Of a stretch of 64,000 nt of DNA, positions 6,127-56,642 are shown piece by piece. The stretch comes from Methanobrevibacter sp. (GTDB lineage: Archaea > Methanobacteriota > Methanobacteria > Methanobacteriales > Methanobacteriaceae): positions 1,533-65,532 of the forward strand of contig NZ_JAFSNZ010000043.1 in assembly GCF_017447225.1 (NCBI RefSeq). Direction: 5' to 3'. The translations under genes were made by a program, and so were the position numbers. Under the pieces are notes generated by a model. That model saw nothing but the letters and a program-made list of their open reading frames with translations. It was not told the DNA's origin and did no database searches. The stretch's first letter is position 1. The number at the start of each line of letters is the position of its first letter.

Positions 6127-6353
6127 TATATATCATCATCGCTTTTAAGTAATACTTTATCTCCAATAGCTTTTACAAGCTCTACCGGAATAACATTTTC
6201 ACTGTCACGGATTTGCTCTGAAATTCCGGTTTTTTTAATTACCAAATCAGTAATTTCAAAACTGTCCTCATCAAAAATCAGTTCGGAAACTTTACCAATA
6301 ATTTTTGCATTCGCATCAAGAATTTCCTTGTTAAATAATTCTTTAGTTCTCAT
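6126..6353 (-). CDS. PRC-barrel domain protein
   Basis: 75 aa ([26 protein letters not shown]...). Its stop overlaps the pyrE start by 1 nt (TAATG). Paralog-like to 21306..21584. Confidence 0.55.
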
Positions 6354-6421
6354 AAAAAATCACCTTATGTTATCAGTATTATATTTGAATTTTGAATTTA
6401 AAAAAGTTTAGTTTTAAAAAA

Positions 6422-41385: not shown

Positions 41386-42617
41386 ATTTCATTACCTTTT
41401 AAGAAATCTATAATATTCATATGTTTTATACCATCACGAGACATATCCTCATCATCCATACTTAAAACATAAGCATCATATTTATCTGGAATACTTAATA
41501 ATGGACCAAATTCTCTATTAATTGTATCTTCACGTTCCATCAGATAAGAAACTTGAATATATATTCGTTTATCAACTTTTTGACAAACAAAATCTATTTC
41601 TTTTTTATTGATTATGCCAACATCGACTTCATATCCTCTTCTTAAAAGTTCGACAAAGACTATGTTTTCCAGTACTCGAGGAATTCTCTTTTGATTACTT
41701 TCAACAATTGCATGATGAAAACCATGATCCATTGCATAATATTTTTCTTGAAACTTCAGTAATTTCTTACCTATTAAGTCTTGACGCCTACATTTTATCA
41801 AGAAAAAGGATTGTTGAAGAAACTCATTGTATTTTAACAGAGTATCCTGTGTTGTATGAATATTTTTATCCTTTAAATAATTTTTAATACTGTTTGATGA
41901 GAATGTCTGACCTACAGTATTCATCATATACCTAACAAAACGATTAAACAAATCGATTTTTTTAATGCTAAATCTATTAACAACATCATTTAGAATTATG
42001 GTGTTGAAAATATCCCTCAAAGCAGATTTTCTAAACTCATCGGTGTTGAATGCTAAAATACTGGGCATACCCCCATAGTTTATATAATAATTATTAAATA
42101 ATTTACGTTCATCAGCTTCGGATAAATCAATTTTTTCGATTTGTTTTTTATATTGCAGTAATTCTTTAAATGAAAATGGATAAACTTTTATTTCAAGATA
42201 TCGTCCAGATATCAAAGTTGATAACTCATTAGACAATAATTTTGAATTTGAACCAGTTATATAGATATCACAATCCAACTTAACTCTATAACCATTGATA
42301 CTTTTTTCCCACTTGTCAACTTCCTGAATTTCATCAAAAAATAGGTAAATCTTTCCAGAGATGTCTTTTACCTTTTCATATACAAGTTTATCCAAATCTT
42401 TAAAATTTTCAACCAAATAATAATCTGGGTCTTCAAAGGAGATGAAAATAATATTATCATCATTAATTCCCTTGTTTTTTAGCTCATCAATAATGCTATA
42501 AAGTATACTTGTTTTACCGCAACGTCTAATTCCGGTAAAAACTTTGATAAAATCTGAATCTACATATTCATCAAAATATTTTAAATAATCCATTCGTTTG
42601 ATTAAATTTTTAGCCAT
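41382..42617 (-). CDS. AAA-type ATPase with DUF4143-like C-terminal domain
   Basis: 411 aa. Walker A GIRRCGKTS, Walker B LFFDEIQEV and a long C-terminal domain, as in the archaeal/bacterial AAA_14-DUF4143 family. Its stop overlaps the convergent upstream gene's stop (TTAG). Confidence 0.7.
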   Translation of the reverse strand: MAKNLIKRMDYLKYFDEYVDSDFIKVFTGIRRCGKTSILYSIIDELKNKGINDDNIIFISFEDPDYYLVENFKDLDKLVYEKVKDISGKIYLFFDEIQEVDKWEKSINGYRVKLDCDIYITGSNSKLLSNELSTLISGRYLEIKVYPFSFKELLQYKKQIEKIDLSEADERKLFNNYYINYGGMPSILAFNTDEFRKSALRDIFNTIILNDVVNRFSIKKIDLFNRFVRYMMNTVGQTFSSNSIKNYLKDKNIHTTQDTLLKYNEFLQQSFFLIKCRRQDLIGKKLLKFQEKYYAMDHGFHHAIVESNQKRIPRVLENIVFVELLRRGYEVDVGIINKKEIDFVCQKVDKRIYIQVSYLMEREDTINREFGPLLSIPDKYDAYVLSMDDEDMSRDGIKHMNIIDFLKGNEI

Positions 42618-42680
42618 ATTAACAACCCAAATTATAAAGTTTTTATTTTACTTTATACTGTTAATATGATATAAATATTT

Positions 42681-42770
42681 CTAGTATACTATGATAAATT
42701 TAAAAAAATAGAAAACTACCCTAGTATACTCGAAAGAAAATAGAAAAATAAAAAACTATCATAGTATACT
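42681..42770. repeat. three copies of TAGTATACT (containing the perfect 8-bp palindrome AGTATACT) phased at exactly 40 bp
   Basis: ctagtatact at 42681, ctagtatact at 42721 and atagtatact at 42761. The 40-bp units also share an aaaatagaaaa(n)aaaacta(c/t)c tail. Confidence 0.85.
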
Positions 42771-42791
42771 CTATAGTCTATAAAAAACAAG

Positions 42792-43655
42792 TTAATCCAA
42801 TAAATCATTCAAACTGAATATCATCGATTCTCTAATTGCATATTTTTTCTGCAAATTATCCAAAGAATCAACTAAATTTCTCTTAAACCTCTCACAGGCA
42901 TAATCATCATATTTAAATTTAATACCGTCATACTGAATATCCATTAAAATCAAATAATCCGGTTCCGTTACCTTAATGCTTGCTCTTGGTGAATTTTCAG
43001 GAGGGTTCAACAGTTCACGAACATCATCCAGAGTCATCTTATCATTTGCAACGTCAATAAAAACTCGCATCATCTTTCTGACCATATTCCATAAAAAGGA
43101 TTCTCCGTAAATATCAACGAATATTGGAGATAATGTATCATGCAGATTAGGAAACTCCCTTTTGTGATAGTCATCCAATCCCACTTTAGAGATTTTAATG
43201 TCATCAATTGTTCTTGTGGTGGTCTTCTGATATCTTTTTGTAAAATTAGTGAAGTTATGAGTTCCCTTAAATACTTCAGCAACTTCATTTAGCTTATCCA
43301 TGTCAAGATCCTGAAACAACAGATATCTGTATTGTCTCATCTGAGCATATCTTGGCTTGAATGCATAGCGAACAGGAGCTTTTGCAAGAATTTGGATATC
43401 ATCAGGCAGGCTGTTGTTGATTTCATTTACCTGAACTTCCTTTTCAGACTGGAAACTGATAACATTACCCAAACTATGGACACCCGCATCGGTTCTTCCA
43501 GCAATTCTGAATCTGGACTTTTTTAAATCATCAATATAGCCCAATTTACGCAAATGATAAATCAGTTCCTCTTCAACAGTCCTTAAATCAGGCTGTCTTT
43601 GAAAACCATGAAAATTAGTTCCTATATATCCAATTTTTAGTGCTGTTCTTTTCAT
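42792..43655 (-). CDS. truA: tRNA pseudouridine(38-40) synthase
   Basis: Catalytic-Asp motif GRTDAGVHS and N-terminal LKIGYIGTNFHGFQRQ. Start set at the ATG at 43655 (track TTG at 43676). Confidence 0.85.
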   Translation of the reverse strand: MKRTALKIGYIGTNFHGFQRQPDLRTVEEELIYHLRKLGYIDDLKKSRFRIAGRTDAGVHSLGNVISFQSEKEVQVNEINNSLPDDIQILAKAPVRYAFKPRYAQMRQYRYLLFQDLDMDKLNEVAEVFKGTHNFTNFTKRYQKTTTRTIDDIKISKVGLDDYHKREFPNLHDTLSPIFVDIYGESFLWNMVRKMMRVFIDVANDKMTLDDVRELLNPPENSPRASIKVTEPDYLILMDIQYDGIKFKYDDYACERFKRNLVDSLDNLQKKYAIRESMIFSLNDLLD

Positions 43656-43705
43656 TAATAATAATTTTAACTTCAATATAAAAAAATATATCTATAAAAT
43701 GATAA

Positions 43706-44209
43706 TTACAAATTTTTTACCATATGGCTGGTTTCGTCATAATCATCTTCTTCAACAGTTATTTCATAACCTAAAGATTTCCAGAATGACAAAGCTGCAT
43801 CAAGATATCTATGTGTATGCAGATACATTTTATCATACGATTGAGACCTTGCAAAATCTTCCATTCTGCTTACAATATTTCGTGCAAGACCATGTCTTCT
43901 ATACGTTTCATCGACCATCAGTCTCCATATGCTTGCAGTATTTTCTTTGGAATAAATGCCCTTAAACATTTCATAATCCTTATCATATGCCCTTACAGCA
44001 CCTGTTGCAACTATTTTATCCCCATCCCAGGCTATAAAAAAGTTATTTCTTTCAGGTAAAATATAATACTCTCCAATTCCATCGATATCATAATGAAACT
44101 TAGGATTCGGACCAATACCATATTCTTTCATGATTTGGTCATATAAAAAGTCCTGAACAAGACGAATCTCATTTTCATTATCATTAATTTCTCTAATTTC
44201 AATATTCAT
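43706..44209 (-). CDS. GNAT family N-acetyltransferase (paralog A)
   Basis: 167 aa from MNIEIREIND. Acetyl-CoA motif YRRHGLARNIV. Clearly paralogous to 48805..49368 (shared ...ERNNFF(I/V)A..., (V/I)RAYDKD..., SSIWRL.VD...RR.GLA..., YLHTH..LD.A..FW...G). Confidence 0.75.
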   Translation of the reverse strand: MNIEIREINDNENEIRLVQDFLYDQIMKEYGIGPNPKFHYDIDGIGEYYILPERNNFFIAWDGDKIVATGAVRAYDKDYEMFKGIYSKENTASIWRLMVDETYRRHGLARNIVSRMEDFARSQSYDKMYLHTHRYLDAALSFWKSLGYEITVEEDDYDETSHMVKNL

Positions 44210-44271
44210 AGTATCCCCATATTTTAAAAAAAGATTTGAAGAGAAATGAAGAATTTCTCTTAACATGATTT

Positions 44272-45135
44272 TTATTCCTGTGCAGTTTCAGGATTAAGTA
44301 ATTTTTCAACATTTTCTCCAATCAAATCGAACAATAAAACAACTATCAACAAGGACATACCAGGATAGAATGCTAACCACCAATATCCTGATGATAAATA
44401 ATTCATTGATTCAGACAATATTACTCCAATTGCAGGTTCATGAGGAGGCAAACCAAAGCCTAAGAAAGTAATTGCTGCTTCGTGCATAATAGCATGAGGA
44501 AACATCAGAATTACACCAACAATAATTTGAGATACGATTAATGGGAAAATGTGTTTAAGAGCAATCCAAAATCTGCTCCTGCCCAGATTTTCAGCTAAAG
44601 AAATATATTCTTTAGTTTTAATTTCCTTTACTTCAGATCTAAGAACTCTTGCAAGTGGTGTCCAGTGCGTTAAACCTACACCCATAATAACACCATATAC
44701 GCCCCCACCAAACATTATTGAAACAATAATGATTAAAAGAATATGGGGAATAGAACCAAATAAATCAATAATTCCGGCAACACATTCATCAGCAAATTTG
44801 TTGAAACTGGAAAACAATCCCAAAACAATAGAAATGCATGTACTAACAGCAGATGCGATGAAACCTACCATCAGACTTAATCCAAGACCTGCAATGGTCC
44901 GCTGAAACATGTCTCTTCCCATCCAGTCAGTTCCGAAAAGATGTTCTAAAGAGGGCATCTGATTAGCATTTACAAAACTGGTTGGGATATCCCTTATAAA
45001 ATAACCGGAAACAAAAATGCTTATGATAACCAATGCAGAAATACCAATAATTACAAAGGTCTTTACCCTAAGATTTGCAGAGTATAAAAACCATTGCCTT
45101 TTATCATCAGTCTTTTTCTTAATCATTGAACTCAT
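44272..45135 (-). CDS. ABC transporter permease (peptide/nickel OppC/NikC type)
   Basis: 287 aa, 6 TM helices. N-terminal TM then LGTDWMGRDMFQR, typical of DppC/OppC/NikC. Confidence 0.8.
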   Translation of the reverse strand: MSSMIKKKTDDKRQWFLYSANLRVKTFVIIGISALVIISIFVSGYFIRDIPTSFVNANQMPSLEHLFGTDWMGRDMFQRTIAGLGLSLMVGFIASAVSTCISIVLGLFSSFNKFADECVAGIIDLFGSIPHILLIIIVSIMFGGGVYGVIMGVGLTHWTPLARVLRSEVKEIKTKEYISLAENLGRSRFWIALKHIFPLIVSQIIVGVILMFPHAIMHEAAITFLGFGLPPHEPAIGVILSESMNYLSSGYWWLAFYPGMSLLIVVLLFDLIGENVEKLLNPETAQE

Positions 45136-46108
45136 TCTCCTTAATTCTTGGATCTATGAAATAATATGAAATATCTGCAAGCAGGTTTCCAACAAATACA
45201 AATATTGCACTAATTACTACAATTCCTAAAAACAATGGCACATCATTTTGAAGACCTGCAGCTACTGCCGTTTGACCAATACCCGGATAGGAAAATACCT
45301 GTTCCACCATAACTGCACCACCAAATAATTCACTGAATGATAAGAATTGCAATGTGATTGCAGGCAATAATATATTTCTTATTCCATGATTTTTAATTAA
45401 ATCCCAGCCTTTTTCTCCTCTAGATTTTGCGAATAATACATAATCAGAAGATAAAACTTGAACTAATTCATTACGTGTATACATTGCAATTGGCGCCAAA
45501 CCAACTAAACTCAAAGTCAATGTAGGAAGAACCAGCCTTGATGCCCATTCCATAAATGTCGCATCCGTACTTTTTACACCTATTGGAACTCCAAACCCTA
45601 TTGGGAACCAACCTAAATAGACTGAAAATACCATTAAAACAAGCATTCCAACCCAAAAAGATGGAGCTGATTGAATTGCATAGCAATATACTTTTATAGC
45701 CTTATCAATCCATGAACCTTTATTTTTACCAGCGACTACCCCAAATACAAAACCGAGAATTCCACTTAATACCCAAGAGATAGCCATTAAAACTACAGAA
45801 GCAGAAAACTTATCTATAATTACATCCATGACAGGGGCACGATATATCAATGAAGTACCAAGATTGCCTTGAATTAAATCTAAAAGCCAATGATATATTT
45901 TTGTCGTTAACGGAACATTAGTACCAAAATACTGCTCTAAAATTTGGCGTTGTGCTTCTGATACCGCAGCACCTTTTAAATAAGCATTAACTGGATCAAT
46001 AGGGGATAAATCTAATAATACAAAACTAAAAATTGCAACAGCAATCATCAATATTATAAAACGAATTAACTTATAACCAAAATATTTTGCTATTTTTTGT
46101 TTATTCAA
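45119..46108 (-). CDS. ABC transporter permease (peptide/nickel OppB/NikB type)
   Basis: 329 aa. YKLIRFIILMIAVAIFSFVL N-terminus and DYVLFAKSRGEKGW (EAA-loop region). Confidence 0.8.
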   Translation of the reverse strand: MNKQKIAKYFGYKLIRFIILMIAVAIFSFVLLDLSPIDPVNAYLKGAAVSEAQRQILEQYFGTNVPLTTKIYHWLLDLIQGNLGTSLIYRAPVMDVIIDKFSASVVLMAISWVLSGILGFVFGVVAGKNKGSWIDKAIKVYCYAIQSAPSFWVGMLVLMVFSVYLGWFPIGFGVPIGVKSTDATFMEWASRLVLPTLTLSLVGLAPIAMYTRNELVQVLSSDYVLFAKSRGEKGWDLIKNHGIRNILLPAITLQFLSFSELFGGAVMVEQVFSYPGIGQTAVAAGLQNDVPLFLGIVVISAIFVFVGNLLADISYYFIDPRIKENEFND

Positions 46109-46160
46109 TGAAATAAACCCCCTTGAAAAACTTTAAAAAAAAAATAAAAAAAGGAAATGA

Positions 46161-47771
46161 TTAAGCGGAGTTGGTTCTGGTCCACTCACAGATATTAATC
46201 AAAACATCATTTCCTAAACCATCAGGTTGATTTCCGATATCAATACCGTTTTTAATGAAATAATTGTAGTCGTAGTTTACAAGCCATGCAAATGGAGCAT
46301 CACCAGCAGGACCCCATCCTCCGCCGTTAACAAGAGCAGATTGTGCCCATAAAGTGTTAGCAGTAGATAAATCATTGGAGTGCATTGCCTCTTCCATCAA
46401 TTTATCAGAATCAGAGTTATTGTATAAGTTTGGATTCATATAGAAATCATCTGCTTCTTTACTGTGATATTGTTGATAAATTGATTTGTATGGGTCTGGA
46501 GAAGTCTGTTGCATTACTGCTGCTGAACTGTACATATTTGCATAAATGGTATCCCAGTCAGCACCTACGAGTTTTACTTCTATACCTAATTCTTTAGCTT
46601 GTTCAGCAAATACTGTTGCGAGAGATTGTCTGTCAAGATAATCTGGCTGGTAGTATAAATCAAATGATGCTTTTGTTCCGTTTTTCTCCACGATTCCATC
46701 ACCATCAGTATCTTCCCATCCTCCATCTTTCAGGATTTGTTTTGCTTCATCAACATTAGCATCTTGGACTTTAGCATCAGGATTTGCATAGTCTCTTGTA
46801 TCTACACTTGTGAATTCAGGAGTAGCATGACCAGAAAATATTTCATCACACATTTTTTGACGGTCAATACCAACATTTAATGCTTCCCTAATTGCTTTAT
46901 CAGCAGTTACATTGTTACCTATTTTGGAACCTGCCGGACTTACAGCACCGGTATCTTCAAGATATGGTAAGGATATACCCTGTGCTCTTCCTGCAGATAC
47001 TTCATAGAACTGATAACCATCCACAGTTTGGTTTAATGCTGAAGTTGCAACTGGTACAACATCAACTTGACCTGATTTAGCGAGTTCTAACCAAGTAGCT
47101 TCATCAGGGAATAATAATGTAACTTGAGTAAAGTATGGTTTATCTCCGTAATAATTATCATTTATTTTGAAGATTGCTTGTTGACCTTTATCCCAGTGGT
47201 CCAATACATATGGTCCAGTACCAACAGGATTTTGGCCATAAGTGGAATTATCATATTCTTCAGGTACAATACCAAGATATCTTAAATCATAAATAAAAGT
47301 TGATCTTGGTTCTACTAATTGAAATTCAACACATGTAGCGTTTTTAGCAACAGCTTTATCAAGATTGGTTAAATCCAAGTCTGATTCAGTTTCTTTTGCT
47401 TTGTTAAATGTGAATGCAACATCATTTGCGTCAAATGTTGAATTGTCTGAGAATTTAACATCATCTCTTACATTTACAGTCCATGTTAAACCATCTTCAC
47501 TGATTGAATAATCAGTAGCTAAATCTGGAACAATAGTTCCATTTGCATCTGTTTTGAATAAACAGCTTTGTACTAATGGATTGTAGTTCTGGTGTCCGCA
47601 TCCCCAACCGGTAAGTGGGTCAAAACCAGATTCAGGTTCTTTAATATTACTGTGTGCTGCAACAGTTAAATGAGTAGGATCAGTATCTGTTGAACCCCCC
47701 ATAAACATAGCGGCAGCAGCAATAATAGCCACAAGAACCACAGCTCCACCGATTAATATTTTTTTATCCAT
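46161..47771 (-). CDS. ABC transporter substrate-binding protein, family 5 (peptide/nickel/opine type)
   Basis: 536 aa from MDKKILIGG (GGAG 8 nt upstream; track TTG at 47786). N-terminal membrane anchor, then family-5-like blocks (GTGPYVLDHWDKGQ). Confidence 0.75.
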   Translation of the reverse strand: MDKKILIGGAVVLVAIIAAAAMFMGGSTDTDPTHLTVAAHSNIKEPESGFDPLTGWGCGHQNYNPLVQSCLFKTDANGTIVPDLATDYSISEDGLTWTVNVRDDVKFSDNSTFDANDVAFTFNKAKETESDLDLTNLDKAVAKNATCVEFQLVEPRSTFIYDLRYLGIVPEEYDNSTYGQNPVGTGPYVLDHWDKGQQAIFKINDNYYGDKPYFTQVTLLFPDEATWLELAKSGQVDVVPVATSALNQTVDGYQFYEVSAGRAQGISLPYLEDTGAVSPAGSKIGNNVTADKAIREALNVGIDRQKMCDEIFSGHATPEFTSVDTRDYANPDAKVQDANVDEAKQILKDGGWEDTDGDGIVEKNGTKASFDLYYQPDYLDRQSLATVFAEQAKELGIEVKLVGADWDTIYANMYSSAAVMQQTSPDPYKSIYQQYHSKEADDFYMNPNLYNNSDSDKLMEEAMHSNDLSTANTLWAQSALVNGGGWGPAGDAPFAWLVNYDYNYFIKNGIDIGNQPDGLGNDVLINICEWTRTNSA

Positions 47772-47815
47772 AAATATTCTCCACAATATAATTGAAAAAG
47801 ATATATTAAAATCAA

Positions 47816-47856
47816 AGTATTACTTTTTATTGAAAAATTCTTCAATAAGTAATACT
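47816..47856. promoter_or_regulatory. dyad AGTATTACTT-N21-AAGTAATACT (core TATTACT-N23-AGTAATA) upstream of the binding-protein/permease operon
   Basis: 10-bp perfect inverted arms at 47816-47825 and 47847-47856. A second inner inverted pair lies at ATTGAA/TTCAAT. The dyad sits 45 nt upstream of the ATG at 47771. The same core and spacing recur at 49390-49426. Confidence 0.55.
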
Positions 47857-48117
47857 TTTTTTTATTATTTTAATATGATTATTAGTTTATGATGAAACCA
47901 TATAAAAATATATTTATTACTATTAAACAAAATTTGATAGATAAACATTTTTTAATAATTAGTCCATTAAATAAACAGTTTCTAAATTTTAAAATAAATA
48001 AAATATAATAGATAAATAGTTTTATAATATAAAAATTGTACAAATTAAATATATCCTACCTAATGAAAAGTAATACAAAAATTAAATTTAAATAATATCT
48101 CATTTAAATATTTGCCC

Positions 48118-48810
48118 ATGACCTTATCTTCAAAACTTAAAAAATTTCTAATTAATAACGGTGCAAACGAAGTAGGTTTTGCAGACATCACCAATTTTAC
48201 ACCAAAAAAAAGACTGAATACAGGAGTAGTTTTTTACATCACATATCCAAAAGAAATCATCAAAAATATGCAAAATGCACCGACACAAGAATATCTTGAG
48301 GAATTAATAAGTTTGAATACAAGATTAGACGCACTTGGAATGAAATGTGAAGATTTTCTCATTAATAAAGGATATGAAGCCTATGCTCAAACAAAAAAAA
48401 GATTAGGATCAGATTTTGGTGAAAATAACGGGTTTGAATTACCACATAAAACAATAGCTACCCGTTCAGGTCTTGGATGGATCGGCAAATCAGCATTATT
48501 TACCACATTCAAATATGGGTCTGCTTTAAGATTATCATCCGTATTAACTAATGCACCATTAACTATTGGAAAACCCATACTTAAATCAAAATGCGGAAAA
48601 TGTGAAATTTGTAAGGACGCCTGTCCTGGAGAAGCCATAACCGGGAAAGAATGGAACTATAAACTTAAAAGAAACGATTTTTATGATGATAAAAAATGTG
48701 AAAAATACGCCCTTATCATTTCTAAGGAAAATTTAGGAAAAGCAGATACCGTATGTGGAAAATGTATCTTTGCTTGCCCACATACTCAGAAGTATATTAA
48801 AAAATCATAA
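48118..48810 (+). CDS. 4Fe-4S dicluster protein, epoxyqueuosine-reductase (QueG)-like C-terminal half
   Basis: 230 aa. CGKCEICKDACP and CGKCIFACP ferredoxin motifs, and GLGWIGKSALF as in the QueG/RdhA superfamily. Too short to be a full QueG. Confidence 0.5.
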   Translation: MTLSSKLKKFLINNGANEVGFADITNFTPKKRLNTGVVFYITYPKEIIKNMQNAPTQEYLEELISLNTRLDALGMKCEDFLINKGYEAYAQTKKRLGSDFGENNGFELPHKTIATRSGLGWIGKSALFTTFKYGSALRLSSVLTNAPLTIGKPILKSKCGKCEICKDACPGEAITGKEWNYKLKRNDFYDDKKCEKYALIISKENLGKADTVCGKCIFACPHTQKYIKKS

Positions 48811-49368
48811 TTTTACAGCATATCTAAAATCAGTTGCTTGAGAATTAATTTTCAATTCATGAATTTGCTTATCCATATGAACAGTTTGAAGCTCATCCTC
48901 CGAATCCAGCGCAACAACAAATCCCATTTTTGTCCAGAATTCAATAGCTCCATCTAAATTTTTATGCGTATGCAAATAAATATCTTTAAAACCCACCTCA
49001 TTTGCAAATCTTTCAGCAATACAAAACATTTTAGACGCCAAACCACAACGCCTACATCTTCTATCTACAAATAATCTCCATATGCTTGATGTTATATCTT
49101 TAGAGTATAAATGTCTAAATTCTGGAAAATCTTTATCGTAAGCCCTTATTCCAATTGTTGCTATTATTTCACCGGTTTCTTCTGCATATGCTACAAAAAA
49201 ATTGTTTCTTTCAGAATTAATATAATATTCATCCATATGTACAATATCCTGATGCCATTCAGGAACATAATCATATCCAAATTCAATTTTAATCATTTTA
49301 AATAAAAATTCCTGAACATCATGAATTTGTTTTGGATTATTTCCTAATTCTTTAATTACAACATTCAT
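48805..49368 (-). CDS. GNAT family N-acetyltransferase (paralog B)
   Basis: 187 aa from MNVVIKELGN. CRRCGLASKMF acetyl-CoA motif. Paralog of 43706..44209. Its 3' end overlaps the convergent Fe-S gene by 6 nt. Confidence 0.75.
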   Translation of the reverse strand: MNVVIKELGNNPKQIHDVQEFLFKMIKIEFGYDYVPEWHQDIVHMDEYYINSERNNFFVAYAEETGEIIATIGIRAYDKDFPEFRHLYSKDITSSIWRLFVDRRCRRCGLASKMFCIAERFANEVGFKDIYLHTHKNLDGAIEFWTKMGFVVALDSEDELQTVHMDKQIHELKINSQATDFRYAVKL

Positions 49369-49389
49369 CATAACACCCAATTGAAAACT

Positions 49390-49426
49390 TATTACTTTAT
49401 AGTTAAAAATTATGTTATAAGTAATA
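49390..49426. promoter_or_regulatory. second copy of the TATTACT-N23-AGTAATA dyad, between GNAT paralog B and the ABC ATPase genes
   Basis: TATTACT at 49390-49396 and AGTAATA at 49420-49426, with the same 23-nt spacer as at 47818/47848. The flank ATAAGTAATACTTTTTT is identical over 17 nt to 47845-47861. Confidence 0.55.
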
Positions 49427-49514
49427 CTTTTTTATTGATTTTGAATAACTTTAATATTGATAAAGTACAAAATAGTATTTAAAAGTTATCATTTATTATC
49501 AAAAAGGTGATTTA

Positions 49515-50474
49515 ATGGAAAAATTATTAGATGTTGAAAATGTTTCAATTTCATTCATCCAATATACTAAAGGATTAAATCAGCGCGATTTAAAAGTTAT
49601 CACTGATTTAACATTAGATATATCTGAAGGAGAAATTTTGGCAGTATTGGGTTCAAGCGGTTCTGGAAAAAGCCTACTTGCACATGCAATATTTGGAATA
49701 CTTCCAGAAAATGCAAATTTAAATGGAAAAATCAAATTTAAAGGAAAAGAATTATCCCAAAAAGATAAAGAAGAAATAAGAGGTAAAGACATAGTTTTAG
49801 TACCTCAATCAGTAAACTTTTTAGACCCATTAATGAAAATTTCAGATCAAGCTATTGGACATACCGAAAGTGACAGTGAAAAAGCCGAAAAGAAATTGAA
49901 ACAGAGAGAAATCTTTGAACATTATAATTTAGGCCCCGAAGTAGATGATATGTACCCATTCCAATTATCCGGAGGAATGGCTAGAAGAGTGCTGGTTTCA
50001 ACCGCATTGCTGTCAGATCCGAAACTCGTTGTAGCAGATGAACCAACGCCAGGACTTGATGAAAAAACTGTAGAAGAAACATTAAATCATTTTAAACATA
50101 TGAAAGAAGATGGTATTGGAGTGCTTCTAATCACACATGACATTCATGCAGCATTGGATGTTGCAGACAGAATCGGAATATTCTATTCAGGTTATGTGAT
50201 AGAAATCGCTGAAACAAAAGACTTCTCCGGAGATGGAGAAAACCTGCTTCACCCATACACAAAGGCATTATACAAGGCACTGCCTGCAAACGGATTTGAA
50301 CTGACAAAAGGACATCAGCCACTACACGGAGAAATCCCTGAAGGATGTCCATATTACGACAGATGCGAAATGGCATTTGACAGATGCAAAAAAGAAAGAC
50401 CTCAGCTAATAAGCCTTGGAAACAAAAAAGTCAGATGCTTTAAATATGAAGAAGGTGAAATAAATGAAGCTTAA
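49515..50474 (+). CDS. ABC transporter ATP-binding protein (OppD/NikD type)
   Basis: 319 aa. Walker A GSSGSGKS, signature LSGGMARR, Walker B VVADEPT and the C-terminal Cys-rich oligopeptide-type extension (EGCPYYDRCEMAFDRC). AAAGGTGAT Shine-Dalgarno sequence. Confidence 0.85.
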   Translation: MEKLLDVENVSISFIQYTKGLNQRDLKVITDLTLDISEGEILAVLGSSGSGKSLLAHAIFGILPENANLNGKIKFKGKELSQKDKEEIRGKDIVLVPQSVNFLDPLMKISDQAIGHTESDSEKAEKKLKQREIFEHYNLGPEVDDMYPFQLSGGMARRVLVSTALLSDPKLVVADEPTPGLDEKTVEETLNHFKHMKEDGIGVLLITHDIHAALDVADRIGIFYSGYVIEIAETKDFSGDGENLLHPYTKALYKALPANGFELTKGHQPLHGEIPEGCPYYDRCEMAFDRCKKERPQLISLGNKKVRCFKYEEGEINEA

Positions 50475-51078
50475 GGCAGAAAATATCTCATTCAAATATC
50501 CGTCCGCCAAAGACTATATTTTAAAAGACATCAATCTGGAATTGGATAACAAAAAAATCATCGGACTGATTGGAGACAGCGGAAGCGGAAAATCAACATT
50601 ATGCAAAATACTTTCAGGTCATATTCAGAAATATGAAGGTGAAGTGAAATTCAATGATGAAAAACTTCCAAACAAAGGTTTCAAACCGGTTCAATTAATA
50701 TATCAACATCCTGAAAAGGTAATGAATCCCAAATGGAAAATGGATAAAGTGCTGTCTGAATCATGGGATGTAGATGATGCAACATTATCAGAATTCGGTA
50801 TTCAAAAATCCTGGCTGACACGTTTCCCACAGGAGCTGTCCGGCGGAGAACTTCAAAGATTTTCAGTTCTAAGAGCAGTGAATCCGAAAACACAGTTCCT
50901 GATAGCTGATGAGATGACAACGATGCTTGATGCGATAACACAAGTTCAAATCTTAGATTCAGTGATAAAAATAGTGAAACAGAGAGATATGGGATTTTTA
51001 CTTGTAAGTCACGATATGGATTTAGTAGACACCATATGTGATGATAAAATCTATTTCAAAGATATTAATGGTATCTAA
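50464..51078 (+). CDS. ABC transporter ATP-binding protein (short OppF/NikE type)
   Basis: 204 aa. Walker A GDSGSGKST, signature LSGGELQR, Walker B LIADEMT. 11-nt overlap with the preceding gene. Confidence 0.85.
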   Translation: MKLKAENISFKYPSAKDYILKDINLELDNKKIIGLIGDSGSGKSTLCKILSGHIQKYEGEVKFNDEKLPNKGFKPVQLIYQHPEKVMNPKWKMDKVLSESWDVDDATLSEFGIQKSWLTRFPQELSGGELQRFSVLRAVNPKTQFLIADEMTTMLDAITQVQILDSVIKIVKQRDMGFLLVSHDMDLVDTICDDKIYFKDINGI

Positions 51079-51099
51079 CCATAATATCAATTAATTTTT

Positions 51100-52134
51100 T
51101 TAATGATAACCTGAAAACCTTTTTAATTTAAGCAGTTTATCAACAAACAATACCAGCAGCCATGTACCTAAAACTACCATTATAGAAAGCAGAATTACTG
51201 AAAGTAAAGTTTGTGTACCTGTTGATGAAAGAGATTTGAAAATCTGAGATATTGGAATTAATATTGCCATATGAGCAAGATACATACCATAACTAGCCCT
51301 GCTTACTGAAGTTATAAAACGTTTTATTATAGATCTGTCCAATATAATATAATTCAAATTCTTAAAAAGCAGGAATACAGCTGAAGCTTGAATTATCTCT
51401 AAAAAGCTAATATCATAACCGGAACTCAGATAGATTGCATCATTTACAAAAAATATCGTTGAATCATGAAAAGTTAACTTTAAAAGGGTTGATATTGAAA
51501 ACAACATAATTGAAACCAGAATTATTTTATTTCTAGATATTTTAAATTCATAATTGGCTAAAAAATAGCCAAGAACAACATAAGATATTGGCAAGACAAA
51601 AAATCTTAAATCAAAAAATGTCCCATATCCCAAAATCACACAGACTGAATAAAAGACACTTGCAAACATCATTAGAATAATCATATATTTACATGCTTCA
51701 AAACCTTTATTTAAAATAAACTCATTGACAACAGGAATGATGAAATAAACTCCCATTATCATCCAAAAATACCAATTCCAACTTGCATTAAAAAATTGAT
51801 CAATTATTACAAACGGATAATCCTGAATCAATGTCCCTGAAATAAATAAAAAAGTGATTATTGTTATAATAATCCAGAAGATATATGGAAATACTATTCT
51901 GGAAAACCTTTTCTTTAAGAACTGACTGATTGAAATATCCTTATTCAAAAGCAACGTTCCAGTTATCATTAAAAAGACAGGAACAGCAAAACGAAAGATT
52001 TCAGACAGATAGGATATTCGAAAATTCAATATTTCACTGTGGCCCGTGAAACCACACAGATGAATAAATATAACTCCAAATATTGCGATAAATTTTAATA
52101 AATCAATGTAATAAATTCTATCATTTTTATACAT
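51100..52134 (-). CDS. acyltransferase family 3 membrane protein
   Basis: 344 aa. YIDLLKFIAIFGVIFIHL ... RFAVPVFLMITG parallels 1692..2684. Confidence 0.65.
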   Translation of the reverse strand: MYKNDRIYYIDLLKFIAIFGVIFIHLCGFTGHSEILNFRISYLSEIFRFAVPVFLMITGTLLLNKDISISQFLKKRFSRIVFPYIFWIIITIITFLFISGTLIQDYPFVIIDQFFNASWNWYFWMIMGVYFIIPVVNEFILNKGFEACKYMIILMMFASVFYSVCVILGYGTFFDLRFFVLPISYVVLGYFLANYEFKISRNKIILVSIMLFSISTLLKLTFHDSTIFFVNDAIYLSSGYDISFLEIIQASAVFLLFKNLNYIILDRSIIKRFITSVSRASYGMYLAHMAILIPISQIFKSLSSTGTQTLLSVILLSIMVVLGTWLLVLFVDKLLKLKRFSGYH

Positions 52135-52145
52135 TGATATATATT

Positions 52146-53507
52146 TTAACTGTCAAAATATATAAGCTTATTAATACATGAATTAGCCCAAATCAATGTA
52201 ACATTATTTGATACAACCTCACCAAGGACAATACCCATCCAGGCACCCCAAACACCCCATCCAAATACTAAAGTGAACAATAAGGCAAAGCACAACGTGA
52301 AACCTGTTTCTCTTAAAATTGTCTGAAACATCGCAGTTATTCCACGTCCGACACCCTGGAAAACATAAGTTGAAGCTACCCCTACAGCCATTGTCGGATA
52401 GTAAAGCACAATCCACATCAGAAAGCTTGTTAACTCACTTGATATTCTTGCACTGCTTCCGGAAGCAAATACTGATGCGATTTGGGGAGCAAAAACAATC
52501 GTTAAAATCATCACGATAACTGCAAAAATCATTGATATTTTCATTGAGTATCTGTGAGCGATTCTGATATTTTCGTAATTGCGGGCACCATAATTAGCTG
52601 CAATAACTGATACCAGAGCGGTTCCGATAGCCAAAATCGGAGTTGTTCCTATTGTAACAACTCTCCAGCCTGTGGAATATACTGCAACGGAATCTGTTGA
52701 TGATATGAATGCAAGAAGCGCTGAAAATACTGCTGCAAAAAATGCATTGTTGAGAAGCTGCAGGCTTGCCGGAAGCCCTACTTTTATGATATCAAATGTT
52801 ATCTCTTTTTTAAACTTGAAATTAGCTAAATTTGGCTTTAAATAAGTGTCCTTTTTAATGTAAAACCAGTAACTTAAGACAAGTATCACAAACAATGATG
52901 AAATCAGAGTTGCAACAGCCGCACCCGTTACTCCCAAGCCCAATGTGTAAATAAATATGGGATCCAATATAATATTCAAAACGGCAGATGCAATCATTGC
53001 ATACATCGGTCTTGATGAGTCACCTTCGCCTCTGAAAATTCCGTATAATGCATTGGACAATATTACAAATACTGAACCTGTGACAATAACAGCACCATAG
53101 TCCATTGCGAAGTCAACAGTCTGGCCGGCACCCATCAGAATCAGAATATCTTTTAAGAACACTAACAAAATAATAGTTAAAATAATTGAAATGACAATTG
53201 TGATTAATATCGAATGTATTGAACCGTTGTCCGCTTTCTGTTTGTTTTTCTCACCGATATATTTGGATAATGCAAAAGCGGAACCTGCACCAAGCCCGTT
53301 ACCGAATCCTATTAAAATCATGAATATTGGAGTTACAAATCCGACGCCTGCAAGGGCATCCGCTCCAAGCGAAGACACCCACATCGCATCAATGAGATTG
53401 TATAAACTTGATATTAATAGCGATATAATTAAAGGTATTGACATGCTTAACAGTGCCTTTTTAGGGTTTCCAAGCAATACATCAACATTATTTTCACTAA
53501 ACATCAA
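52146..53507 (-). CDS. MATE family efflux transporter
   Basis: 453 aa, 12 TM helices. N-terminal LLGNPKKALLSMSIPLIISLLISSLYNLIDAMWVSSLG is a typical MatE repeat start. Confidence 0.8.
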   Translation of the reverse strand: MMFSENNVDVLLGNPKKALLSMSIPLIISLLISSLYNLIDAMWVSSLGADALAGVGFVTPIFMILIGFGNGLGAGSAFALSKYIGEKNKQKADNGSIHSILITIVISIILTIILLVFLKDILILMGAGQTVDFAMDYGAVIVTGSVFVILSNALYGIFRGEGDSSRPMYAMIASAVLNIILDPIFIYTLGLGVTGAAVATLISSLFVILVLSYWFYIKKDTYLKPNLANFKFKKEITFDIIKVGLPASLQLLNNAFFAAVFSALLAFISSTDSVAVYSTGWRVVTIGTTPILAIGTALVSVIAANYGARNYENIRIAHRYSMKISMIFAVIVMILTIVFAPQIASVFASGSSARISSELTSFLMWIVLYYPTMAVGVASTYVFQGVGRGITAMFQTILRETGFTLCFALLFTLVFGWGVWGAWMGIVLGEVVSNNVTLIWANSCINKLIYFDS

Positions 53508-53579
53508 TAATAATATGTCAGAAAAGTAAATAAAATTTTTTGATAAATGGTTAAAAAAAAGTTATGAAATGAAGAAAGA

Positions 53580-53858
53580 TTATTCTTCTTCATCTTCAGA
53601 TACGTAGATTTCTTTTTTGACTTCAGAGTTTGCATCGACAACAATGTCTTCAGCGTTTTCTCTCATGTCCTGGAATGCTTCTTCAGCGTCCCTTTTAGCA
53701 GACATAACTGCAGCCATTCCTTTGGTGGTTGCTTCTTTAACTGCTTCAGATTCCAATACTTTTTTACCTACGATAGCTGTTGCAACACCTGCTGCAAAGA
53801 TTAATACATGCTTGTGTTTTAAAGCTTCATCAACATATCTTCTTACCATATTTTTCAT
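53580..53858 (-). CDS. small hypothetical protein with one hydrophobic helix and an acidic tail
   Basis: 92 aa (VLIFAAGVATAIVGKKVL ... VSEDEEE). Lies directly downstream of the metal ATPase. No family assigned. Confidence 0.4.
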   Translation of the reverse strand: MKNMVRRYVDEALKHKHVLIFAAGVATAIVGKKVLESEAVKEATTKGMAAVMSAKRDAEEAFQDMRENAEDIVVDANSEVKKEIYVSEDEEE

Positions 53859-53889
53859 CTCCCAAATGTCAAATTTTCAAATATAAAAA

Positions 53890-53907
53890 TTAAGTAATAT
53901 TACTTAA
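53890..53907. promoter_or_regulatory. perfect 18-bp palindrome TTAAGTAATATTACTTAA upstream of the small gene
   Basis: Read directly. It lies 32 nt upstream of the ATG at 53858 and is built from the same AGTAATA/TATTACT words as the ABC-locus dyads. About one such palindrome per window could arise by chance in this AT-rich DNA. Confidence 0.3.
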
Positions 53908-54053
53908 ATATAGGTTAGTACATTTTAGTATATAAATTATTCGATTTTTAGAGCTTTTTTAGGCTAAACAAATAATTAAATTTAGTTATATCAAAATTAG
54001 GCTTGTCTAAATTATTTAAATTTTTAGTAATGCCAAAAAATGAAAAAGTAAAA

Positions 54054-56642
54054 TTAGAATAGTGGATCTTTCACCATTCCAATTCTAAATGAATTCAGGA
54101 TAACCAAAAGGGTTAATCCCAAGTCTCCGAAACCTACAGACATCATCAATGTGATTATTCCCAGAATAGCCAATACTACACAGAGTAACTTAACTGCAAT
54201 AGCTACTGTAATGTTCTGTTTGATGATGCTCATTGTCTTATGGCTTAAAGAGAACAGGTAAGGCAATTTGGAAATATCATCCTGCATTAATGCAACATCA
54301 GCTGTTTCAATAGCAACATCAGATCCTGCAGCACCCATAGCAATACCGATATTAGCTCTCGCAAGTGCCGGTGCATCGTTAATACCGTCACCAACCATAG
54401 CAACATCACCGAATTTATTTCTGATTGTATCCAGGATATTCAATTTGTCTTCAGGCATCAGATTTGAATAAACATATTTTATTCCAATCTCATCTGCAAC
54501 CTTGTGAGCGGCAATCTTGTTATCACCTGTCAACATTACTGTCTGTACTCCCTGTTTATTTAAATCAGCAATGACTTCTGATGCGTTGTCCCTGATTTTA
54601 TCGGATACTGTAATTAATGCCAAAACATTTTGTGAGTTTCCGACAAATACCACAGTTTTTCCTTCTGCAGAGTATTTGTTGACATCATCATGTGAAATTT
54701 CAAAGCTGCTGCCTTCAATCAGTGATTCGTTGGCTGCGTAATACTGTTCGCCATCAATGAATCCCACAATTCCTTTACCAGGAACGTTTTTGAAATCGCT
54801 TATTTCTTCAAATTCTATGTCATTTAATGTAGCATAATTTACAATAGCCTGTGCAATAGGGTGTGAAGACTGGTTTTCCAGAGACGCTGCAATTTTAACA
54901 GCATCATCTTTTGAGATTGAATCATCTAAAACTTCAATTTCACTTAATTCCAATTTACCTTCTGTTAATGTACCTGTTTTATCAAATATGACTGCTTTTA
55001 TCCCTTTCATTTCCTCAACATATGTACTTCCCTTAATCAAAACACCGTTTCTGGTAGCGGAAGTAATAGCAGACACCATACCGACAGGTGTTGAAATCAG
55101 GAATGCACAAGGACATGAAATTACCAGAAGTGAAAGTGCCTTATAAATCCAGTCAATCAAATTCTGACCGAATAACAATGGAGGAATGAATGCGACACAA
55201 GCTGCAGCAACCATCATGACAGGAGTATAATATTTAGCAACTTTTTCAACTAAAGACTCTGTTTCAGATCTGTTGAGCTGTGATCTTTTGACTAAAGTTA
55301 CAATCTTGGAAATTACAGAATCCTTTGCCTTTTTAGTTACAACCATTTCAAAGTATCCATCTTCGTTAACAGTTCCTGAAAATACCTCATCACCAACTTC
55401 CTTAAGGACAGGAACACTTTCACCAGTAATTGAAGCCTGATTGACTGAAGATGAACCTGAAATAACATTACCGTCCAATGGAACTTTATCTCCAGGTTTA
55501 ACAATTACAATATCGCCGATGTTTACGTCATCAACATTTTTCAGCTCTTCGGAATCCCCCACTTTAACTCTAGCGGTTTCAGGAGCGATTTCGACTAAGG
55601 ATTTGATTGAACGTTTAGCTCTGTGTTCAGCATAGTCTTCAAGGAATTCTGCAATATAGTAAAGGAATGTTACAGCAGCACCTTCTTCAGGGTGTCCAAT
55701 GATAAATGAAGCAACACAAGCAATACACATAAGCATTGCCGGACCGACAGTGTGCCTTTTAACCAATGACCTGTAAGCCATTCCTGCAATTTCATAACCT
55801 GCAATTATAGCTGCAATCATGAAAATGATTGTGACAACAGTTGAATTGAATGATAAGAATTCTAAAATGTGGCCTGCTGCAAACATGATTCCGCTTGCAA
55901 CGATGATTTGGATAGGTCTGTTAGCTATTAAAGGTTTTCCTTCAGCTAAAAGTTCCTCTTCCTCATGTCCGTGATCATGGTCATGGTCATCATCTGCACA
56001 GTCAGGACAACCGCAAATGCTTATTTCCACATCATCGTCATCGTGGTCATGGCAGGAACAATCCGGGTCTGAACAGGTATCCTTTTCTTCATGTTCATGG
56101 TCGTGGTCATGACAATCACAATCCGGGTCACTACAGGAATCCTCTTCATGCTCATGCTCATCAGAACAACAATCATCATCACAACAAGAATCCTCATGCT
56201 CGTGTTCATGCTCATGCTCGTGTTCATGCTCATGCTCATCAGAACAACAATCATCATCACAACAAGAATCCTCATGTTCATGTTCATGTTCATGGTCGTG
56301 ATCATGACAATCACAATCAGGATCGCTACAGGAATCCTCCTCTTCATGCTCATGCTCATGATGATGTTCATGGTCGTGGTCGTGATCATGGTCATCTGCA
56401 CAGTCAGGACAGCCACAAATGTTTATATCCACGTCTTCATCATAATCTATTTCTTCTCTGTGATCATGCACACTTAAATCTGTATTTGCTTGATAATCTC
56501 TTAATAATTGTTTATCAAAGTGCTGTCTATTCTCACAGTGAATTTCCTCACAATTAGGATCAAAACAAATGAAATTGAAATGTTCTGGATTGTGACAGTC
56601 TTTATCATCACAATCATGTTCATAACACTTATTTTCTGTCAT
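54054..56642 (-). CDS. heavy-metal translocating P1B-type ATPase (Cd/Zn/Co/Pb class) with a His/Cys/Asp/Glu-rich N-terminal domain
   Basis: 862 aa. TM6 CPC (LLVISCPCAFLISTPV), phosphorylation site FDKTGTLT, SSHPIAQAI and hinge VGDGINDAPAL. No ferredoxin-fold HMA (GMxCxxC) domain is visible; the first ~230 aa are low-complexity metal-ligand repeats. Confidence 0.9.
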   Translation of the reverse strand: MTENKCYEHDCDDKDCHNPEHFNFICFDPNCEEIHCENRQHFDKQLLRDYQANTDLSVHDHREEIDYDEDVDINICGCPDCADDHDHDHDHEHHHEHEHEEEDSCSDPDCDCHDHDHEHEHEHEDSCCDDDCCSDEHEHEHEHEHEHEHEDSCCDDDCCSDEHEHEEDSCSDPDCDCHDHDHEHEEKDTCSDPDCSCHDHDDDDVEISICGCPDCADDDHDHDHGHEEEELLAEGKPLIANRPIQIIVASGIMFAAGHILEFLSFNSTVVTIIFMIAAIIAGYEIAGMAYRSLVKRHTVGPAMLMCIACVASFIIGHPEEGAAVTFLYYIAEFLEDYAEHRAKRSIKSLVEIAPETARVKVGDSEELKNVDDVNIGDIVIVKPGDKVPLDGNVISGSSSVNQASITGESVPVLKEVGDEVFSGTVNEDGYFEMVVTKKAKDSVISKIVTLVKRSQLNRSETESLVEKVAKYYTPVMMVAAACVAFIPPLLFGQNLIDWIYKALSLLVISCPCAFLISTPVGMVSAITSATRNGVLIKGSTYVEEMKGIKAVIFDKTGTLTEGKLELSEIEVLDDSISKDDAVKIAASLENQSSHPIAQAIVNYATLNDIEFEEISDFKNVPGKGIVGFIDGEQYYAANESLIEGSSFEISHDDVNKYSAEGKTVVFVGNSQNVLALITVSDKIRDNASEVIADLNKQGVQTVMLTGDNKIAAHKVADEIGIKYVYSNLMPEDKLNILDTIRNKFGDVAMVGDGINDAPALARANIGIAMGAAGSDVAIETADVALMQDDISKLPYLFSLSHKTMSIIKQNITVAIAVKLLCVVLAILGIITLMMSVGFGDLGLTLLVILNSFRIGMVKDPLF
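55962..56423 (-). repeat. in-frame repetitive DNA encoding the HEHE/DSCC/CGCPDC metal-ligand modules
   Basis: A near-identical ~50-nt block (catgctcatgctcatcagaacaacaatcatcatcacaacaagaatcctcatg) occurs twice, starting near 56148 and 56225. Other cat/gtc/aca-rich units recur throughout. Confidence 0.8.

Follow-up and report, generated by a model that had tools for sequence, protein, structure and literature searches.

A split Nik/Ynt-type importer of Methanobrevibacter within a candidate nickel-starvation regulon linked to thermonicotianamine synthase

Introduction

Why should an ABC importer of the peptide/nickel family be divided into two divergent halves, accompanied by two paralogous acetyltransferases of the GNAT family and a QueG-like Fe-S protein? 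The question is raised by positions 43706-51078 of a 64,000-nucleotide stretch of Methanobrevibacter sp. (the window; assembly GCF_017447225.1, contig NZ_JAFSNZ010000043.1). A preliminary description had suggested that the acetyltransferases detoxify Trojan-horse compounds entering through the permease and, as a secondary idea, that they modify an imported metallophore. We propose, with about an even chance of being right, that the locus is part of a regulon for nickel starvation that includes a nickelophore system of the nicotianamine type, and that the GNATs act on the imported chelator. The source genome of the window (G000; 117 contigs, 96.65% complete) was compared across 121 genomes of the Methanobacteriaceae and with genomes of a sister family. 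All the evidence is comparative: gene calls across genomes are crude open reading frames (ORFs), and the compared genomes are related rather than independent.

The split importer

All eight genes previously described between 43706 and 51078 were found as placed, using the ORF list, Pfam and NCBIfam:

43706-44209, minus strand: GNAT_A, 167-aa acetyltransferase, last gene of the SBP-permease unit; Acetyltransf_1 60.8 bits (Pfam); a longer ORF extends to 44266
44272-45135, minus strand: permease C, NikC/YntC-like; BPD_transp_1 (Pfam); best NCBIfam match the Opp2C nickel permease, 179.9 bits (cut-off 300)
45119-46108, minus strand: permease B, NikB/YntB-like; BPD_transp_1 (Pfam); best NCBIfam match the Opp2B nickel permease, 227 bits (cut-off 350)
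46161-47771, or 47786 from a TTG start, minus strand: substrate-binding protein (SBP), YntA/NikA-like; SBP_bac_5 226.9 bits (Pfam)
48112-48810, plus strand: Fe-S protein of 232 aa with a QueG/reductive dehalogenase (RDH)-superfamily core; Fer4_16 (Pfam); two predicted [4Fe-4S] clusters
48805-49368, or 49380, minus strand: GNAT_B, 187-aa acetyltransferase; Acetyltransf_1 (Pfam)
49515-50474, plus strand: ATPase D, NikD/OppD-like; ABC_tran and C-terminal oligo_HPY (Pfam); nickel_nikD 150 bits, below cut-off
50464-51078, plus strand: ATPase, NikE-like and short (204 aa); ABC_tran (Pfam); nikD 113 bits and nikE 111 bits, below cut-off

With a single family-5 SBP and a pair each of permeases and ATPases, all of the peptide/nickel family, the locus has the complete set for one system. 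The closest solved chains to the SBP are those of Yersinia YntA (PDB 3ry3, E 3.2e-86; 4ofl, E 1.6e-85; top score 291 bits), while E. coli NikA is matched at about E 1e-33. The best NCBIfam matches of the importer components are all nickel systems. The SBP reaches 168 bits with nickel_nikA (cut-off 393) and 127 bits with the CntA model (cut-off 800), and the Nik equivalog models give 186 bits for NikB (cut-off 447), 148 for NikC (358), 150 for NikD (319) and 111 for NikE (333). Since all components score below the equivalog cut-offs, the importer is better called a relative of the Nik/Ynt systems than an annotated equivalog. The SBP is present in a single copy in the source genome, the permeases have no paralogue there, and the next-best paralogue of the ATPases is at most 32% identical. 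The homologues of the short NikE-like ATPase in related genomes align over residues 1-202 of its 204. The two halves are thus predicted to be one Nik/Ynt-type nickel ABC importer encoded in separate transcription units.

The structural details of the preliminary description largely held. GNAT_A and GNAT_B are paralogous (43% identical in 169 aligned residues, E 8e-50), 6 nt are common to the Fe-S gene and GNAT_B, which overlap tail-to-tail (48805-48810, stop codons counted), and the halves stand 1.7 kb apart (1.74 kb from SBP start to ATPase start). A gap of 5 nt between permease C and GNAT_A applies only to the long ORF starting at 44266; the start at 44209, whose Met is where the GNAT_A homologues begin in the alignment, leaves 62 nt. 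Rfam gave no match over 42500-54500 at E values up to 0.1. Three RNA runs contain any of the stretch, with a share of 0.06-0.07 each; all are contigs of relatives 90-95% alike, and they are silent on transcripts and co-expression.

A common operator at the four transcription units

The upstream regions of the locus share a candidate operator, the palindrome AGTAWTACT (as an 11-mer, AAGTAWTACTT), whose composite form consists of two copies 32-33 bp apart, typically flanking a TATA-like box. Sites are exact matches unless stated, and the control is the reversed motif. The locus contains the following sites, to which no strand is assigned:

47816-47856: composite operator upstream of the SBP gene; AGTATTACT at 47816-47824 and AGTAATACT at 47848-47856, centres 32 bp apart
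48069-48077: one-mismatch site upstream of the Fe-S gene; AGTAATACA, 35 nt before its start
49389-49428: operator common to GNAT_B and the ATPase unit; exact AGTAATACT at 49420-49428 and degenerate CTTATTACT (2 mismatches) at 49389-49397, 31 bp apart

Of the SBP pair, which stands beside the TATA-like TTTTAATATAT, the nearer element precedes the SBP start by 45 nt and the farther by 77 nt; the exact site at 49420-49428 is separated by 52 nt from the start of GNAT_B and by 87 nt from that of ATPase D. Counted within the window only, the motif is unremarkable: 6 copies stand against an expectation of 2.56, and 3 of 100 shuffles reached as many. The case for the operator rests on genome-wide and cross-genome counts. 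The source genome holds 15 occurrences of the 11-mer, compared with 2 of the reversed control, and 46 of the 9-mer core; 14 of its 43 site pairs lying 9-80 bp apart are spaced by 32-33 bp. The composite operator was found in 54 of the 121 family genomes and its reversed control in none (0/121), and many composite instances of relatives show a TATA-like box between both palindromes.

The positions of the sites are also conserved. Of 30 loci, 21 have an exact site in the 300 nt before the SBP gene; the pair stands 37-51 and 69-83 nt upstream in the window and in loci L005, L006 and L010, and 34 and 66 nt upstream in L033. ATPase D is preceded by an exact site at 79-88 nt in all six split loci (the window, G031, G080, G103, G114 and G083), compared with only 1 of 23 other loci, where the gene is internal to the operon. 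Orthologues of the Fe-S gene show a site 33-35 nt upstream in seven of nine copies, exact in L032, L033 and L035 and with one mismatch in the window, L005, L006 and L010. GNAT_B homologues have an exact site within 250 nt upstream in 48 of 65 genomes, at a modal distance of 50-57 nt. The background for an upstream exact site is 16 of 1822 crude genes in the source genome. Because each unit carries a site at a conserved position, the split importer is read as a conserved and co-regulated arrangement and not as a broken operon. The earlier claim that these genes form a functional unit agrees with the presence of the same operator on all four transcription units, at positions kept in relatives.

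The composition of the locus is more variable than its operator. Five other genomes, G031, G080, G103, G114 and G083, also have a split importer whose halves enclose GNAT_B, the Fe-S gene or both, so that the arrangement that had been described is conserved in part, with a content that varies. G114 and G083 have the Fe-S gene and no GNAT; G031 and G103 have GNAT_B, as the first gene of the SBP-permease unit, and no Fe-S gene. In G037 and G082 the operon is unsplit and the GNAT_A orthologue lies between permease C and ATPase D. The idea that each half is paired with one GNAT copy does not amount to a conserved rule, given the unsplit operons and the loci without GNAT.

A candidate regulon and its probable signal

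Further operator clusters of the source genome lie upstream of CbiM-PDGLE-CbiQ-CbiO, a Ni/Co transporter; upstream of a second CbiM gene (two sites), which is divergent from the gene of a 948-aa FmdE-domain protein; and between hmd and hcgG, a FeGP-cofactor gene. On contig C47 (3743-7106, locus L027) five sites (6844-7098) precede the gene of a 672-aa P-type ATPase with no HMA domain match, followed by a gene (3743-4654) for a 303-aa HrcA-type regulator with winged helix-turn-helix (wHTH) and CBS domains. Since Hmd rises under nickel limitation in Methanothermobacter (reported in PMC3087415 and PMC12350162), the operator set is read as a nickel-limitation regulon, which would comprise two CbiM-type Ni/Co transporters, the hmd/hcgG region, a P-type ATPase and, in relatives, tNAS, with nickel as the probable signal. 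The operator common to the CbiM transporters and hmd/hcgG likewise suggests nickel transport by the importer of the window and its nickel-responsive expression.

Two candidates for the regulator can be named, NikR and the co-regulated wHTH-CBS protein behind the five sites. A nikR gene is present on contig C8 (ORF 7989-8441; NikR_C 106.8 bits). The operator half-site GTATTAC resembles the NikR half-site GTGTTAC, and GTATTAC itself is listed as a variant in Table 4 of PMC545781. As context, in supplement 5 of PMC12350162 nikR1 of M. marburgensis is up under nickel limitation, as is the predicted transporter c10530 (about 35-50 fold; its orthology to the locus genes is not mapped), and c10540, the uncharacterised neighbour of c10530, is seen under nickel limitation only.

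Several other occurrences of the operator were recorded. In G037, sites orthologous to the L027 cluster adjoin the synthase gene. In G321 (L239, 1987-3860) the gene for a 591-aa ChlI/ChlD-like chelatase subunit follows an operator pair spaced by 31 bp, of which one site is exact and the other has a single mismatch; chelatase-like proteins are listed as induced by nickel limitation in M. marburgensis in PMC12350162. On contig C79 of the source genome (8543-9929, L030) a pair (9888 and 9921) lies upstream of two successive genes, the first HisA-related (His_biosynth) and the second of a cation-efflux family. The HisA-related gene c10510 of M. marburgensis lies near c10530, its orthology to the L030 gene not being established. 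A secreted FmdE-domain protein of about 950 aa recurs beside regulon members (source genome C17, 13657-16503, L026; G321 L249, 176-3076); its gene is divergent from the CbiM gene with two sites in the source genome and directly downstream of the synthase gene in G321.

The GNAT family and thermonicotianamine synthase

The GNAT family of the locus was found in 68 of the 121 genomes. When the neighbours of the GNAT genes were clustered, a single family dominated: it occurs in 31 of 64 loci, in 24 of them as the immediate divergent neighbour. This family is thermonicotianamine synthase (tNAS or NAS; Pfam PF03059): its members score 76-94 bits with the Pfam NAS model, and their closest structures are the tNAS entries of Methanothermobacter (E 2e-83). 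The operator pair lies in the intergenic region shared by the two genes, as in L008 with sites at 10386 and 10417. Protein searches found NAS in 62 of the 121 relatives; 56 genomes have both GNAT and NAS, 12 GNAT only, six NAS only and 47 neither; two of the NAS-only cases are fragments and one is a 32% paralogue. The co-occurrence also holds where both genes are sporadic, as with one genome each in g17, g18 and g25. The linkage between the GNAT family and tNAS is therefore both phyletic and positional.

In the sister family, the NAS of G321 matches MtNAS (PDB 3fpe) with 100% identity along 263 residues, and its divergent neighbour, 221 nt away, is the GNAT gene, with two one-mismatch sites 32 bp apart between them. 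In G320 (loci L226, L235 and L237) and G328 (L225, L236 and L238) the NAS gene is frameshifted into two pieces and the adjoining GNAT shows an in-frame TAG near residue 16 of the family alignment, so that synthase and acetyltransferase appear to have decayed together. As a separate observation, in G066 (L007, 5560-7800) the tNAS gene is split by a 401-aa transposase-like ORF (6134-7339), and the adjoining GNAT and operator pair are intact.

Of 69 GNAT genes placed on a tree, 24 have NAS beside them, seven both NAS and ABC genes, and 19 ABC genes, while the remaining 19 stand alone; NAS, GNAT and ABC genes stand together in seven loci. GNAT_A groups with the G037 and G082 orthologues in one clade (support 100/100). 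These data bear on the possibility that the transporter has the GNATs and the Fe-S gene as chance neighbours only, with regulation of their own. The variable composition described above, with the Fe-S gene but no GNAT in G114 and G083 and the reverse in G031 and G103, would fit such a fortuitous neighbourhood, as would the many paralogues of the Fe-S family elsewhere (94/121 genomes). It is nevertheless highly improbable in view of the operator at conserved distances before every unit, the 50 of 69 GNAT genes found beside NAS, ABC genes or both, and the neighbourhood context that changed at least six times on the GNAT tree.

The acetyltransferases themselves carry little indication of substrate. 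Pfam matches are to Acetyltransf_1, 7, 10 and 4 only, and the names of the homologues are all generic ("GNAT family" or "RimI-like"); the structure model of GNAT_B has a predicted local distance difference test score (pLDDT) of 90.9. The leading idea of the preliminary description was a MccE/RimL-like or phosphinothricin-type defence, in which the GNATs acetylate toxic peptide-like or aminoacyl-nucleotide antibiotics that enter via the Opp/Nik-type permease. Weak matches to aminoglycoside and streptothricin acetyltransferases (E 3e-4 to 6e-3) and the putative phosphinothricin acetyltransferase 1vhs at rank 14 among the fold matches speak for it. On the other side, Pfam shows no RimL/MccE-type (Acetyltransf_3) match, the best NCBIfam resistance models reach 19-27 bits against cut-offs of 125-200, the genes belong to a putative metal regulon with hmd/hcgG and Ni/Co transporters, the partner gene of the GNAT is a chelator synthase, and the GNAT is conserved, with its operator, in genera where the importer was not found. 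We therefore regard this idea as unsupported and very improbable, and favour the secondary one, modification of an imported metallophore, for which the positional and phyletic partnership with tNAS argues.

Another explanation keeps the nickel regulon and dispenses with the chelator. NikA/YntA systems take up free Ni(II) or Ni-(L-His)2, and the importer could be a plain nickel importer of this kind, with the GNATs and the Fe-S protein taking part in the starvation response without touching the transported species; the GNATs might, for instance, acetylate some protein or a different small amine. Among solved proteins YntA is nearest to the SBP, the GNAT occurs with the operator in genera where the SBP was not found (24 of the 68 GNAT-containing genomes have no SBP), and the top structural neighbours of the GNAT include the protein acetyltransferase HP0935, PaiA and N-terminal acetyltransferases. 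We regard this explanation as rather unlikely; it leaves unaccounted for the co-occurrence with tNAS (56/12/6/47), the divergent NAS-GNAT promoter in 24 loci, the joint disruption in G320 and G328, and the GNAT_A orthologue inside the importer operon of G037 and G082.

In several genomes that have no Ynt-type importer (G075, G081, G120, G036 and G084), hmd lies only 5-13 kb from the NAS-GNAT pair, which suggests a nickel-limitation gene neighbourhood.

Genomes without the synthase and a proposed mechanism

No NAS was found in the source genome by tblastn, protein search or Pfam PF03059. The source genome is one of the 12 with GNAT and without NAS, 11 of which have the SBP; nine of the 12, counting the window, have ABC genes no more than about 900 nt from the GNAT. 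That the GNAT is kept with the importer where the synthase is missing argues for action on an imported compound and not only in biosynthesis. The position of the GNAT_A orthologue within the importer operon of G037 and G082 points the same way. The organism is probably a non-producer of the chelator.

Thermonicotianamine is described as glutamate extended by two aminobutyrate additions (PMC10248798, PMC10491745). This extension of glutamate would leave a free terminal primary amine. Bacteria cap the corresponding amine with CntM. The CntM family (PF10100) gave no match over cut-off in any of five genomes (G000, G006, G037, G111 and G321; four with NAS), and control genomes were equally without a match, so that the sensitivity of this search is unconfirmed. 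Because the amine would be free, CntM caps it in bacteria and no CntM was found, the GNAT is proposed to acetylate the terminal amine of the chelator.

The same data would suit a biosynthetic tailoring enzyme that caps the terminal amine of thermonicotianamine before export, in the place of CntM, so that the secreted nickelophore would be N-acetyl-thermonicotianamine; the GNATs of synthase-less genomes would then be relics or act on imported uncapped chelator. The arrangement of NAS and GNAT as a divergent pair or as a GNAT-then-NAS operon, the joint disruption of both genes in G320 and G328, and the CntM result above agree with tailoring. It is nonetheless unlikely, given the 12 genomes that keep a GNAT and lack NAS (with the importer in 11 and the GNAT beside it in nine), and given two intact GNAT copies in the source genome, where no NAS was found. 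In addition, an acetylated ligand amine would be expected to bind metal less well.

In the preferred mechanism, in which the GNATs act on imported chelator, a metal-sensing repressor would shut all four units at nickel sufficiency. The importer would most likely take up Ni(II) in complex with a chelator that other methanogens make, because the source genome, with no detectable tNAS, keeps the importer and two GNATs. The GNATs would then N-acetylate the free primary amine of the nicotianamine-type nickel chelator, and acetylation after import would either lower its affinity and release the nickel or neutralise free chelator. The Fe-S protein would be a co-regulated accessory reductase. Gene content, the conservation and positions of the operator and the GNAT-tNAS linkage are seen in the sequences themselves; from these comparative data we infer nickel as the signal, the substrate of the GNATs, the identity of the regulator, the chelator as the substrate of the importer and the timing after import.

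A number of observations weigh against this mechanism. YntA, the best structural relative of the SBP, is a nickel-binding protein, and the CntA model gives only 127 bits for a cut-off of 800. Foldseek matches of the GNAT fold are generic, and ESM Atlas likewise returned generic GNAT clusters. Within a NAS-centred, Methanobrevibacter-rich set of 80 loci, the GNAT lies within 600 nt of NAS in only 18; it is 1.7-6.2 kb off in six and outside the fetched flanks in 50, with short flanks in a further six, and an exact site was found upstream of NAS in only 27. Exact sites lie within 300 nt of hmd in only 12 of 30 loci, and the 8-mer is not enriched in the higher-GC genome G321 (47 matches against 175 for the control). 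The absence of tNAS from the source genome is not proven, because the assembly is 96.65% complete and in 117 contigs. Regarding the regulator, no operator site lies near nikR itself in the source genome, and the heptamers GTAWTAC are about 25 nt apart (N25), compared with the N13-16 given for NikR in PMC545781. Finally, none of the seven acetyltransferase-named proteins in supplement 5 of PMC12350162 is induced in M. marburgensis under nickel limitation, orthologues of the GNATs not being mapped among them.

The QueG-like Fe-S protein

The Fe-S protein had been described as QueG-like, and it does contain the QueG/RDH-superfamily core, without the C-terminal part of QueG. NCBIfam gave 59.5 bits with the RDH model and 58.2 bits with QueG (TIGR00276, cut-off 200), both below cut-off, and the TIGR00276 match covers profile positions 131-234 of 337. 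Cysteines C161, C164, C167, C171, C196, C215, C218 and C222 are invariant in 15 sequences. The model (pLDDT 78.5) superposes over its whole length on QueG and on the PceA/NpRdhA dehalogenases; Foldseek matched QueG 5d0b at E 1.1e-8 and PceA with a TMq of 0.68. The protein has 232 aa, compared with 370-384 resolved residues in the QueG chains (399-437 aa as deposited). Its family comprises many paralogues of about 235 aa, in 94 of the 121 Methanobacteriaceae genomes. Close orthologues (at least 64% identity) occur next to importers of this clade in G037, G082, G080 (two copies), G114 and G083; those of G002 and G118 are not so placed. These data are consistent with a co-regulated accessory protein and putative reductase.

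Neighbouring genes

The locus is flanked by genes on both sides:

42792-43676: truA, on one side
51100-53507: an Acyl_transf_3 gene and a MATE gene, on the other side

A variant palindrome, AGTAATATTACT (53893-53904), shares the arms of the operator and has two bases at its centre where the operator has one. It stands upstream of a minus-strand run encoding a 92-aa ORF, the MATE protein and Acyl_transf_3, and just downstream of the gene of a His-rich P-type ATPase. A MATE gene adjoins the importer or GNAT in four other genomes of the same genus (L010, L011, L012 and L047), and its product could be a chelator exporter. The P-type ATPase (54054-56642, minus strand) has 862 aa and a long N-terminal region of HEHEHE, HDHD and Cys-rich repeats, which looks like a metal-binding tail.

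Comparison with known systems

The locus is similar to YntABCDE and NikABCDE in its five components (one family-5 SBP, nearest to Yersinia YntA, two permeases and two ATPases) and, presumably, in a metal-responsive operator at the promoter. It differs in that the ATPase pair forms a separate, divergently oriented unit with its own operator copy, in the GNAT that ends the SBP-permease unit, in the second GNAT and the QueG-like gene between the halves, and in an operator spacing unlike the NikR boxes of E. coli and delta-proteobacteria.

The Cnt systems of Staphylococcus, Pseudomonas and Yersinia, which serve nicotianamine-like (opine-type) metallophores, comprise CntKLM for synthesis, CntABCDF for import and CntE or CntI as exporter. 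They are under zinc and iron control. Their counterpart in relatives of the source genome is a NAS-like synthase clustered with a family-5 SBP ABC importer under apparent metal control, and the SBP matches CntA weakly. Here, however, the GNAT is the conserved partner, in the place of CntM, the probable signal is nickel, and the source genome has the importer and GNATs with no synthase found. The synthase, too, is of the archaeal thermonicotianamine type, for which PMC10248798 and PMC10491745 give a glutamate starter with two aminobutyrate additions. The locus resembles a Nik/Ynt nickel importer embedded in something like a Cnt-type metallophore system.

The GNAT partner in relatives is the orthologue (E 2e-83) of MtNAS of Methanothermobacter thermautotrophicus (PDB 3fpe, 3fpf and 3o31). 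MtNAS is known structurally and mechanistically; within the open literature consulted, its physiological role, regulation and GNAT neighbour were not found described. The mention of NAS in Methanobrevibacter in PMC8485483 is in passing only. No description of the GNAT-NAS pair or of the operator was found in the open literature, a scope that does not extend to Laffont and Arnoux 2020, the 2009 MtNAS paper or Rodionov 2006.

Cytoplasmic acylation of an imported metallophore, in metal release and recycling, may have a precedent in the ferrichrome pathway of Pseudomonas aeruginosa, where desferrichrome acylation was reportedly described by Hannauer et al. in 2010. The acylating enzyme there is FiuC. 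The likeness is one of description, and the pathway concerns iron, a hydroxamate siderophore and a bacterium.

QueG and the reductive dehalogenases use cobalamin and two [4Fe-4S] clusters. The model of the Fe-S protein superposes on the QueG/PceA cores and both cluster Cys motifs are kept; unlike QueG, it lacks the C-terminal part and is one of a large family of paralogues of about 235 aa.

Published NikR operators are GTATGA-N16-TCATAC in enterobacteria and GTGTTAC-N13/14-GTAACAC in delta-proteobacteria (PMC545781). The operator of the locus is similar in its paired sites at the promoters of nickel transporters and of a nickel-independent hydrogenase; however, each element is a 9-bp palindrome, and the two are 32-33 bp apart from centre to centre, three helical turns rather than two.

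Implications

Extended to the Methanobacteriales, the proposal would describe a nickelophore system, induced by nickel starvation, of tNAS, a dedicated GNAT, a Ynt/Cnt-like importer and, in some lineages, a small QueG-like cobalamin/Fe-S reductase, under one operator that would also switch on the nickel-free Hmd, with some gut Methanobrevibacter, including the organism studied here, importing the nickelophore of others. We advance this wider picture tentatively, at somewhat less than an even chance. The GNAT in the place of CntM, the archaeal synthase and the apparent nickel control would set it apart from the known Cnt-type systems.

The demand of methanogens for nickel, which goes into F430, [NiFe]-hydrogenases and carbon monoxide dehydrogenase, is unusually large, and their habitats often hold nickel in unavailable forms; to our knowledge, their nickel scavenging is poorly known. 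One operator that ties nickel importers, the Hmd switch, tNAS and a dedicated acetyltransferase together makes the question testable by standard assays. If the proposal is true, archaeal thermonicotianamine would gain a physiological role. It would also suggest that gut and rumen methanogens engage in public-good and cheater dynamics over nickel, and may bear on methane-mitigation strategies aimed at nickel supply.

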